Below are positions 3,001 through 6,000 of a stretch of DNA of 19,738 bases, one piece after another. The stretch is from IMG/VR virus record IMGVR_UViG_2703718838_000006. The stretch is one strand, 5' to 3'. This DNA is from a virus. Its lineage: Duplodnaviria; Heunggongvirae; Uroviricota; Caudoviricetes. Each line of letters starts with the position of its first letter. The first letter of the stretch is position 1. A program made the position numbers.

Positions 3001-6000
3001 AGCCCCGAGCTATTAACTCAGGGCTTTATTTAACGAGTGCATTTATCCATCGTTGAGTCAAATTTACCCAACTTTATTCAAAAAGTCAATATTATGCCGT
3101 TAATATGTTGCCATCCGTGGCAATCATGCTGCTAACGTGTGACCGCGTTCAAAATGTTGTCTGCGATTGACTCTTCCTTGTGGCATTGCACCACCAGAGC
3201 GTCATACAGCGGCTTAACAGTGCGTGACCAGGTGGGTTGGGTAAGGTTTGGGATTAGCATCGTTACAGCGCGATATGCGGCGCTTGCTGGCATCCTTGAA
3301 TAACCGACGCCTTTGCATCTTCCGCACTCTTTCTCAACAACTCTCCCCCACTGCTCTGTTTTTGCTATATCAACCGCACGACCTGTACCGTGGCAATCTC
3401 TGCATCTTGCCCCCGGCGTCGCGGCACTACGGCAATAATCCGCATAAGCGAATGTTGCGAGCACTTGCAGTACCTTTGCCTTAGTATTTCCTTCGAGCTT
3501 TGCCACACCACGGTATTTCCCCGATACCTTGTGTGCAAATTGCATCAGATAGTTGATAGCCTTTTGTTTGTCGTTCTGGCTGAGTTCGTGCTTACCACAG
3601 AATGCAGCCATTCCGAATCCGGCTTGTGATTGCGCCATCCCCATAGCAGCCATCACATCAGTACCGGAAAGAGAGTCAGAAGCCGTAGCCCGTGGTGAGT
3701 CGCTCATCATCGGGCTTTTTGGCGAATGAAATTTAGCTACACTTTCGAGTCTCATGGTCTTCCCCTCTTGCCCTGTTTGACCATCAGGACGCCGTTAACT
3801 ATTGCGTGACGCTCGCCTTTGCTGTCTCTGTTGTACTTGAGCACTGTTCCTCTTGCGCAGGAAAGCATCCTCGCCACTTCGGTCTGATTGCCTCGTGTCT
3901 GGATAAGAAGCTCTGGTATCGTTTGAATCGTGGCGTTCATACGTTCTCCAGTTCGGTGATTTTTATTTCAAGCCTTCCGCCTGGTACTTTCACACCACGA
4001 ATTACGCGAATGTCATCGAATTGCTCGTCGTCTTCCGCAAATCCGGCGTGGATAAGGGAGTCGAGTAAACCCTTCAGGATGTTATCGAGGTCGCGGCGGC
4101 GGGAGTCTGGAACGTCTGCGATGACTTTGATGCGGAGTCTTGATTTGGTGAAAATGTCTAACTTGAGTTGGCGGATGATTTGCTGAACGTCTTTTCGGTA
4201 TTTCTGGCCTTTATCGCTGATGTAGTATTGGCTTCCCCGTCTTCGCCAGTAGGTGTTCACCGACGGCGGGTAAGGAAGCACAAACTGATATTCGTTCATG
4301 GCTTAATCTTCCCCTCCTTCAGCAGGATCGCCTGCGTCCTGATCACGCCTTCGAGGTGATAAAGTCTGGCGTCTTTGTTGTCGAGATTATGGGTGCGTCG
4401 ATCAATTTCATCGTGACACGCGCTACAAGCCCATGCGCCGATCAGGTCGTCAGGCTTCATTCCCGTTCCGCAAATTCCAGCCATCCGGTAATGTGCCAGA
4501 ACTGTAGTTTCAGGATTGCCATTGCATACGCCGTAAATACGTACCTGGCATTCTCTGCCGCGTGCTTCTTTGCGTAGATTAGCCATTAAGCAGCCTCCCC
4601 TGTTACTTTCAGCATTCCGTTATCGAGAAGCTTTCTGGTCAGCCACTGTTGACCACGCCCGGTGATTTTTGTGGTGAACGATATCTGTATTCCGTGATTT
4701 GTGTTGACCGCTGTTTCTTTCACTGTGAAATAGCCGCGATCCATATATTCCTGCATTGGCACATTGCGCCGGGAACCTGAAGCAATAAGGATTTTGTGAT
4801 CGCGCATCCACGCAAACAGTTTGTTTGGACCAATTCCAACAACCTTTGCAAAGTTTCCAATCAAAATTCCGCTGGCCTCGCCAACGCGATCGGCAAACTC
4901 AACTTTAGGTGCGGCAATTGCGAGCTGGTTTTCCAGTTGCATTTTCTGCTCAGCAAGATCAGCAGCAAGGCGCAACGCTTCCGGTAACGTTTTGGGGATA
5001 TTAACCGCAGTTTCTTCAAGCTCTCGCCAACGGTCAACAAGACGAGCGGTGAATTCCGGCGACAACTGGGCTACAACGACAATACTGTCTCGCTTTCCTT
5101 GTTCGCCCTCGAAGACGTAATGCTCGTACTGAACATTGAACCCTAAGTTATTGATTCTTTCGGAAACCTCAATTTGAGGAAGCCGGATAACACCATTTTT
5201 AGCCAGCGTTTCGATGGTACGTTTCACATTGTCATGACGCTTACCCACCAACTCAGCGATTTCAATGCTTGTCATTTTGATGGCATTGCCATTTATTAAC
5301 TCATTCATCGTCTTCTTCCTCGTACATTGAGCTATTCGGATCGCTCATCAGTTCTGCGCAGCAATCGGAGCACACGTGAACTTCCAGCACATGCAGTTTC
5401 TGACCGCAGTTAGCGCACGTTAAAGCTCGTTCGACGCTTTCTTTCTGGTATTGAATGGTTTGTGATGGGCTAAGCATGGCTTTCACCATTAAAAAGTCGC
5501 TTGTAAGCATCGATGTCTCGACGTGCTTCACCAAGTTTTCTTCTTAGGTCCATATTTTCTGATTCAAGTTTTTCAATGTTTTTTTGGTATCGGCCACGAT
5601 GTTCTTCCCAGGCATCCTGATATGCCTTCATATATGTCGTATTGGCCTTTCTCTTTGCCTGACGAACAGCGTGATGGTTTTCTACAAACCACTCAGGGTC
5701 GTTAAATGCTGCTCTGGCGCAGGTATACCAATAATTTGTTGCCTCCCTGTTTAGCCAATAAATACTGATAAATGGCAACCGGATAGACACCATTTTTCGT
5801 TGAGACTCTTTCTCGCCAAACATGTGCCCTTTTTTGATGCTAAGGCCAAATCCAGGTTGAATTAAAAGCATTGTCATTTCCTCGCACGATGTCTTAGCCA
5901 CCGGATATCCCACAGGTGAGCCGTGTAGTTGAAGGTTTTTACGTCAGATTCTTTTGGGATTGGCTTGCGTTTATTTCTGGAGCGTTTCGTTGGAAGGTAT

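Follow-up and report, generated by a model that had tools for sequence, protein, structure and literature searches.

What kind of gene lies between ninE and ninF in a lambdoid prophage, at a junction where lambda itself has none, and is its presence there out of the ordinary? The question is raised by a 19,738-nt stretch of DNA from the Caudoviricetes record IMGVR_UViG_2703718838_000006 of IMG/VR (hereafter the window), which represents the early half of a lambdoid prophage. Lambda has ninF immediately after ninE, and comparison with it agrees with the first-pass annotation of this DNA in that the window has an additional open reading frame (ORF) between these genes. We conclude that this frame, ORF 5470-5871, is a genuine protein-coding gene and more than a chance ORF, which is well supported, and that it is already known, ordinary mosaic content of the nin region, not an unusual insertion. 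On balance we favour the view that the gene is an interchangeable, non-essential accessory cassette of the lambdoid nin region in the distal part of the early-right (pR) operon, to which we attach a dimer mechanism at low confidence. Coordinates are positions in the window, and all genes around ORF 5470-5871 are on the minus strand. The elements of the junction are as follows:

5470..5871, minus strand: coding sequence of ORF 5470-5871, 133 amino acids (aa), MLLIQPGF...GESHA; defined from the ORF list, PHROG 1511, the starts of homologues and substitution ratios
5874..6050, minus strand: ninE, the upstream neighbour (Pfam NinE, E=1.7e-43)
5301..5477, minus strand: ninF, the downstream neighbour (Pfam NinF, E=1.4e-13), whose start overlaps the end of ORF 5470-5871
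5869..5888, minus strand: left junction ("linker") CGTGCGAGGAAATGACAATG, with the ninE end, GAGGA at 5883..5879, TGA at 5876..5874 and the ATGs at 5877 and 5871
5460..5477, minus strand: right junction ATGCTTAGCCCATCACAA, where the ninF start codon (5477..5475) overlaps the last codons of the ORF and its TAG (5472..5470)

The ratio of nonsynonymous to synonymous substitution rates (dN/dS) of ORF 5470-5871 is 0.20 against phage HK630, 0.13 against VT1-Sakai and 0.14 against Escherichia sp. E1V33. A search of 5.8 billion proteins returned 85 relatives from Escherichia, Salmonella, Klebsiella and Citrobacter, mostly 129-138 aa and typically 131-133 aa long, all starting with MLLIQ. An exhaustive hidden Markov model (HMM) search of 1.84 billion cluster representatives gave 51 hits, about 30 of which are full-length (123-147 aa) and have the same architecture at 20-30% identity. 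The frame, the conservation of which in relatives had been put in question by the first-pass annotation, is thus kept down to ~20% identity. Among the matches listed from IMG/VR, 25 of the 28 viral copies have an intact 133-aa frame, and in the remaining three the contig ends before the gene does. The protein belongs to PHROG 1511 (E=1.1e-84, residues 3-135 in the numbering of the 135-aa form against profile positions 1-133 of 133). All 41 divergent relatives match the same group and most of them also match PHROG 8749, both groups being labelled "unknown function".

The length of 135 aa originally assigned to the product is probably too long by two residues, although the frame itself stands. 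An in-frame start at 5877 would add Met-Thr, and the 133-aa reading from 5871 is likely because the homologues, PHROG 1511 and the annotations of ECs_2979 (RefSeq) and HK630_055 (GenBank) start there; MLLIQ begins the relatives, the PHROG members and annotated ECs_2979 alike, and 402 nt is the annotated length of both genes. The second ATG (5871..5869) lies 2 nt past the ninE stop and 7 nt past the GAGGA Shine-Dalgarno sequence (5883..5879), while the first (5877..5875) forms an ATGA overlap with the ninE stop codon TGA (5876..5874). At the other end, the TAG stop (5472..5470) falls within ATGCTTAG, the sequence with the ninF start at 5477. The ORF therefore occupies 5877/5871 to 5470 on the minus strand and has start/stop overlaps with both neighbours (5877/5874 and 5477/5470), so that both its position between ninE and ninF and its translational coupling were read correctly at the outset. 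Judging from the sequence, the start of ninE would in turn be coupled to ninB, and its stop to ORF 5470-5871.

The base composition is less simple than it first seemed. The ORF has a GC content of 41.8%, against 47-50% in neighbouring genes, and AT-richness is not confined to the 5' part, as had been proposed: in successive 51-nt windows the GC fraction is 0.37, 0.45, 0.33, 0.49, 0.47, 0.43, 0.35 and 0.43, low-GC stretches being scattered along the gene.

The gene is found in 53 phage records at 80-95% nucleotide identity, and its product is 84-92% identical in amino acids to copies from phages of Escherichia coli and Salmonella. Four of the records were inspected, those of HK630, VT1-Sakai, H-19B and AU5Stx1. 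The gene lies between ninE and ninF in HK630, as HK630_055, and in VT1-Sakai, as H0039, which is ECs_2979 of the Shiga toxin 1 (Stx1) prophage Sp15 of E. coli O157:H7 Sakai. Further records include HK629, mEpX2, many Stx1- and Stx2-converting phages and P22-like Salmonella phages, and the ORF53 of Yersinia phage PY54 is a homologue with 46% identity. The ninE and ninF flanks are present in all 28 close viral copies among the matches listed, and also in Escherichia sp. E1V33. Among complete E. coli genomes 385 of 5426 (~7%) carry the gene; a scan of species-representative genomes gave only three loci. The idea that an unknown ORF had been inserted here as something unusual does not hold, then: the ninE-ninF junction is a standard variable slot, and the gene has been public for years. 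It is a standard nin-region gene, although not a characterised one. Names given by the sources to the 85 relatives and to 82 cluster representatives are "hypothetical" or missing, except for a few partial-match chimeras, and we found no mention of the gene in the literature searched.

Two phages carry frameshifted copies. In H-19B (+1 at nt ~105) the copy occupies 400 nt left without annotation between "nin orf-58-A" and "orf-58-B", and roi follows as in the window; in AU5Stx1 (-2 at nt ~253) the annotated upstream neighbour is an anti-repressor gene, not ninE. The gene appears to be dispensable, because such copies exist and because most lambdoid phages, lambda and P22 included, do without it. 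The window allele has an A7 homopolymer of its own on the coding strand (5585..5579, codons Q96-K97-N98), a potential slippage site where HK630 has CAACAAGAC; the frameshifts of H-19B and AU5Stx1 are at other positions.

More distant relatives keep a nin-type location with changed neighbours (NinB, methyltransferases, NinG, Lar-like). In a Pluralibacter prophage the order is NinB, a 66-aa ORF, the homologue, an 80-aa ORF, a C5-methylase and NinF; in PY54 the homologue follows a Lar-like gene and precedes a methylase, and in one further locus (L009) it lies between the replication genes and YbcO/Q. A homologue with 57% identity in "Martelella alba" BGMRC 2031 (locus L005, NZ_SZPQ01000041.1) is preceded by DnaB, NinB and a NinE-like gene and followed by an ORF that is NinG-like by sequence. 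This organism is labelled an alphaproteobacterium, yet it carries a typical enterobacterial lambdoid nin region, and there may be reason to doubt its taxonomic label or its assembly.

The nature of the slot is best seen by comparison with P22, where the order is ninE-ninX-ninF and ninX takes the same place. The left junction is identical in the window, HK630 and P22 (…CGTGCGAGGAAATGACAATG), and divergence begins right after the second ATG; the right junction common to ORF 5470-5871 and ninX is …GCTTAG within ATGCTTAGCCCATC, the start of ninF. As read from these sequences, the shared junctions would fix the second ATG as the start codon. When IMG/VR was scanned for exact matches to the 20 nt of the left junction, at least 120 viral contigs were recovered; among the matches listed, 92 of the linker-bearing contigs have a NinX-type ORF (103-163 aa) and 28 have the gene studied here. 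The gene is thus absent in lambda and replaced by ninX in P22 within conserved boundaries. Since both cassettes share the flanking junction sequences, homologous recombination through them would permit ORF 5470-5871 and ninX to be swapped. These exact common junctions are a clean example of gene-boundary "linker" recombination in phage mosaicism.

Exchange may have occurred within the gene as well. In an alignment with HK630, H-19B and AU5Stx1, the first 240 nt of the window allele agree with the common E. coli allele at ~97% identity, nt 240-350 diverge sharply and the 3' end matches again, which suggests an intragenic mosaic patch; the divergent part corresponds to coiled-coil residues ~82-117. 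Three chimeric proteins (P0081, P0106 and P0131) carry the C-terminal half, from about residue 65, behind an N-terminus that comes from CII, a C5-cytosine methyltransferase or NinB, and numerous half-length hits (PHROGs 28676 and 18832) also break near residue 65. Because of these breaks, recombination or deletion endpoints are suggested to fall within the highly conserved NHHAVRQAKRKA-coding stretch.

The remaining genes of the operon, identified with Pfam and given in the direction of transcription, are the following:

8445..6565, minus strand: Toprim/DnaB-like primase-helicase
6505..6047, minus strand: NinB
5308..4586, minus strand: Rha + KilAC "Roi-like" protein
4586..4296, minus strand: YbcO
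4299..3937, minus strand: RusA
3940..3752, minus strand: NinH
3755..3132, minus strand: antiterminator Q, with the lysis genes next

ORF 5470-5871 is on the same strand as these genes, lies between the replication genes and Q and is packed with overlapping stop and start codons, as a nin cassette should be. The nin region has been described as a pool of ~30-50 non-essential genes, about ten per phage, packed with ATGA overlaps (PMC5630979, PMC8022706), and ATGA coupling is typical of it (PMC8022706). NinC and ninD are missing, as the first-pass annotation stated, because NinB (6047-6505) directly abuts NinE. A simple consensus scan detected neither a sigma-70-like promoter between 4500 and 6700 nor any terminator-like site inside or beside ORF 5470-5871; of the two nearest terminator-like sites on the same strand, the strong one is upstream of ninB and the weaker one lies in the Roi-like gene (4886..4870). 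An Rfam scan of the region gave nothing above noise. The strong site is a hairpin at 6512-6535 (minus strand; AGGCCTGC…GCAGGCCT followed by TTTTATTT) between the primase-helicase gene and ninB, where lambda has tR2, the terminator by which the "nin" (N-independence) region is defined. We suppose that the gene would be transcribed with the other nin genes from pR after N-mediated readthrough of the tR2-like terminator (6535..6512). It has neither a promoter nor a terminator of its own; its translation would proceed through coupling to ninE, and that of ninF through coupling to ORF 5470-5871.

What the protein might do has to be judged from its architecture, which was predicted with AlphaFold2; the predicted local distance difference test (pLDDT) score is 82.6 over the whole protein and, with a 39-sequence alignment, 84.7 for the N-terminal domain. 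The model has beta strands at residues 2-6, 11-16, 26-31 and 35-40, a helix at 42-57, a short helix at 59-65 and a long helix at 67-129. Three parts can be distinguished:

5701..5871, minus strand: N-terminal globular domain, residues 1-57, four beta strands and helix 42-57, with an h-K-K-G-x-L-F-G motif in which G19 is nearly invariant
5620..5700, minus strand: hinge and basic helix, residues 58-84, with D58-P-x-W61-h-h-x-N65 and V69-R70-x-A72-K73-R74-K75-A76, the most conserved part of the family
5491..5589, minus strand: leucine-zipper-like coiled coil, residues 95-127, defined from heptads, hhalign and pLDDT of 90-94

The first reading of the protein as basic with a coiled-coil tail is confirmed by an isoelectric point of 9.6, the long predicted C-terminal helix and the heptads; Trp and Tyr together make up 11 of 133 residues. 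At least 90% of the 39-41 divergent members have D58, W61 and N65, basic residues occur at R70 in 35, at K73 in 34 and at R74 and K75 in 29 each of the 41 members, and a C-terminal L-R-x-x-I motif is conserved family-wide. The mean net charge over the 41 members is +7.2, with +4.3 in the N-domain, +2.7 in the hinge and basic helix, and a neutral zipper.

In the zipper, Y95, L102, L109, A116 and Y123 are in d positions and I99, N106, L113, I120 and F127 in a positions. Over the 41 members the a/d positions are 79% hydrophobic, against 16-53% in the six other registers; an Asn (N106 or N113) is found at an a position in 26 members; and g-e' pairs are attractive or repulsive in ratios of 21:3 (105-110) and 26:6 (112-117). 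In zippers of the GCN4 type, Asn at a and complementary g-e' charges lead to a parallel dimer. The heptad register, the Asn at a and the g-e' charges accordingly predict a parallel homodimer, and the heptads of residues 95-127 fit the zipper part of a basic leucine zipper (bZIP) protein.

That no family could be named for the protein at first sight proved right, there being no Pfam, NCBIfam or PADLOC match. Scans against these three collections gave only sub-threshold coiled-coil noise (Shugoshin_N, UPF0242, MreC, LmuB), the Pfam scan of the 41 divergent relatives likewise nothing above such noise, and the PDB sequences, searched by profile, yielded no more than weak hits to coiled coils and bZIPs (E>0.06 throughout). 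A Foldseek search of BFVD with the protein returned only members of its own family, and the fold of the N-domain had no detectable match. The hairpin-loop-hairpin appearance of this domain had raised the swapped-hairpin fold of AbrB, SpoVT and MazE as a candidate, which was rejected at an hhalign probability of 0.1%.

Within the favoured explanation, the basic 133-aa protein would dimerise in parallel through its C-terminal zipper, and the dimer would bring two basic Ala-rich helices and two N-domains together into a bivalent binding surface. Tentatively, the likeliest ligand would be nucleic acid, DNA in particular, in keeping with the net charge and with the DNA-transaction genes found as neighbours (NinB/Orf, RusA, YbcO, NinG, Dam and cytosine methylases, Lar). 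The protein would then act as an accessory factor in early lytic growth or induction. Several points weigh against such a picture. No neighbour gene is conserved across distant members that would indicate a pathway, and the neighbours are mostly without Pfam hits; no DNA-binding family was matched by sequence with Pfam and NCBIfam, nor with Pfam on the 41 relatives; and a membrane or an acidic protein would be just as plausible a ligand for the basic surface. As for the zipper, Asn is missing from the a positions in 15 of the 41 members, the K-R pair g112-e117 of the window copy is a repulsive one, and the predicted oligomeric state and orientation derive from the heptad rules.

The alternative that survives best gives the same parts another target. 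The protein may be a protein-protein effector that modulates a host factor in anti-defence or host takeover, the zipper serving only for dimerisation and an acidic host protein being the target of the N-domain and basic helix. We regard this as possible, and a protein-targeting role as about equally likely as nucleic-acid binding. Small, non-essential, patchy and horizontally swapped early genes are typical of counter-defence and host-takeover functions; genes of the anti-restriction type are nearby in relatives (Dam and C5 methylases, and the Lar-like protein in PY54); an unmatched N-domain fold is common for fast-evolving effectors; and the C-terminal E-N-x2-L-R-x-A-I motif is conserved beyond what a generic zipper needs. 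On the other hand, a conserved basic helix together with a net charge of +7 would rather be expected of a nucleic-acid binder, there is no conserved partner gene, and PADLOC gave no significant hit, only a coiled-coil match to LmuB (E=0.01, 12 bits). The anti-defence alternative is kept despite this null result because PADLOC covers defence and not counter-defence.

Either function could be new in kind. The family might represent a new class of phage DNA- or RNA-binding proteins, with a small novel beta/alpha domain, a basic helix and a parallel zipper, as an independent bZIP-like solution in temperate phages of Enterobacterales that serves recombination, replication or anti-restriction in early lytic growth; alternatively, the Stx1 prophage of O157:H7 might carry in it an anti-defence effector not recognised before. 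We think such an outcome rather unlikely on the present data.

The use of one slot by two cassettes brings in the further proposal, in our opinion a doubtful one, that the protein is a functional analogue of P22 NinX with an unrelated fold. The junctions, position and expression context are equal, and the two alternate in all 120 linker-bearing contigs among the matches listed. The sequences nevertheless have no relationship: profile comparison with P22 NinX gave an hhalign probability of 0.3%, and there was no PF10765 hit at E<=0.1. Nor are the genes mutually exclusive, as a metagenomic phage contig (L007) carries both a homologue of ORF 5470-5871 and NinX, the latter elsewhere in the nin region. 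Moreover, NinX is itself uncharacterised, with no solved structure found and our literature search finding it named with ninF in a single paper, a phage-genomics study, and slot sharing in mosaic phages generally reflects recombination mechanics and not function.

True membership of the bZIP superfamily, with DNA bound in the manner of C/EBP or GCN4 through the signature N65-x2-A-V-R-x2-K-x-K-A, is very improbable, though the resemblance deserves consideration. The local motif NHHAVRQAKRKA (N-H-H-A-V-R-Q-A-K-R-K-A) is similar to the basic region of C/EBP, which reads N-N-I-A-V-R-K-S-R-D-K-A; the PDB profile search gave weak C/EBP bZIP hits over residues 65-112 (E 0.4-2.4); and the zipper segment aligns to a bZIP profile, a 13-member alignment, with hhalign probabilities of 73% and 37%. 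These alignments cover the zipper only and leave the basic region unaligned, while the PDB bZIP hits all have E>0.1 and require a 2-residue shift. The bZIP signature consists of an invariant Asn and Arg (N-x7-R), with the Asn 18 residues before the first zipper Leu. In this protein the invariant positions fall on N77 and Q85, neither of which is conserved (77 is mostly T, 85 mixed), and the conserved N65 is 16, not 18, residues before the d position M81, thus two out of register. No member among the 41 has a Pfam bZIP_1, bZIP_2 or bZIP_Maf hit at E<=0.01, and in the predicted structure a folded domain precedes the helix. Since the basic-region signature, the spacing and the Pfam match all fail, we do not regard the protein as a bZIP family member, a reading that the register test largely refutes.

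That the ORF is spurious or decaying, or encodes a spanin-like lysis protein, is hardly credible: weak matches to PHROGs of Rz-like spanins (E=0.003 and 0.001), the frameshifted copies and the A7 run can be brought forward for it, but purifying selection and the mostly intact viral copies contradict a spurious ORF, and an Rz-like i-spanin was rejected as these weak matches span the coiled coil only, the prediction places beta strands of a soluble domain at the N-terminus and no transmembrane segment, there is no embedded o-spanin, and the nin region is the wrong locus, the prophage having its own Rz at 1563-2033 in the lysis cassette.

Some other features of the prophage may be recorded here. 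It encodes two Rha-domain proteins on the minus strand. The gene of the Roi-like one, Rha + KilAC (4586-5308), immediately follows ninF; lambda has ninG at this place, and H-19B has roi. That of the other, Rha + ORF11CD3 (839-1393), is downstream of the lysis genes, like rha of P22. In the early-left part, near the repressor gene, a protein at 11990-12673 (plus strand) has a full-length nucleotide-modification-associated domain 5 (Nmad5, E=1e-71), with unnamed ORFs upstream at 11237-11572 and 11566-11913, and its gene is possibly part of a DNA-modification or defence/counter-defence module. A P22-type recombination module at 13323-14856 (plus strand) consists of a Rad52/Rad22-family annealase (13323-14030), a single-stranded DNA-binding protein (14031-14546) and the anti-RecBCD protein Abc2 (14560-14856, E=1e-60). 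It coexists with an excisionase (16964-17272, plus strand) and a lambda-type integrase that has an arm-binding domain (17250-18320, plus strand). The pectinesterase-family gene at 18455-19738 (plus strand), cut by the window end, presumably resembles ybhC, which adjoins the lambda attB site; the window would then span the prophage end at the lambda attachment site.

As a sequence feature, ORF 5470-5871 matters little, being a catalogued hypothetical gene in a slot known as variable. Its product is nevertheless a tractable protein: small, conserved, under purifying selection, encoded in ~7% of complete E. coli genomes and without a Pfam family. If it turned out to have an anti-defence role or to represent a new DNA-binding architecture, it would be of moderate interest for phage biologists.

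Compared with known systems, the closest counterparts are the members of PHROG 1511 and the more distant PHROG 8749, which are of equal length: H0039/ECs_2979 of VT1-Sakai, HK630_055, the homologues in HK629 and mEpX2, and ORF53 of PY54. The close PHROG 1511 copies are positioned between ninE and ninF as in the window, and the window copy departs from the common E. coli allele mainly in the coiled coil. P22 NinX (Pfam PF10765, Phage_P22_NinX), another uncharacterised protein, agrees in the slot, in the left (…GAGGAAATGACAATG) and right (ATGCTTAGCCCATC…) junctions and in the coupling to ninE and ninF; its sequence is unrelated, and its cassettes vary from 103 to 163 aa, in contrast to the uniform 133 aa of the copies of ORF 5470-5871 among the matches listed. 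The nin genes of lambda and P22 (ninB/orf, ninD, ninE, ninF, ninG/rap, ninH, ninY, ninZ and roi) are alike in their operon, tight packing, ATGA-type overlaps, non-essential status and mosaicism, but the protein of ORF 5470-5871 has no homology to theirs and alone has a long coiled coil; it is also larger than NinD, NinE and NinF, which are small zinc-ribbon-like proteins. With the eukaryotic bZIPs GCN4 and C/EBP it shares a basic helix continuous with a heptad zipper, Asn at a and complementary g-e' pairs, whereas their basic-region signature and fixed spacing are not kept and a folded beta/alpha domain stands before the helix, so that the likeness to bZIP is architectural only.

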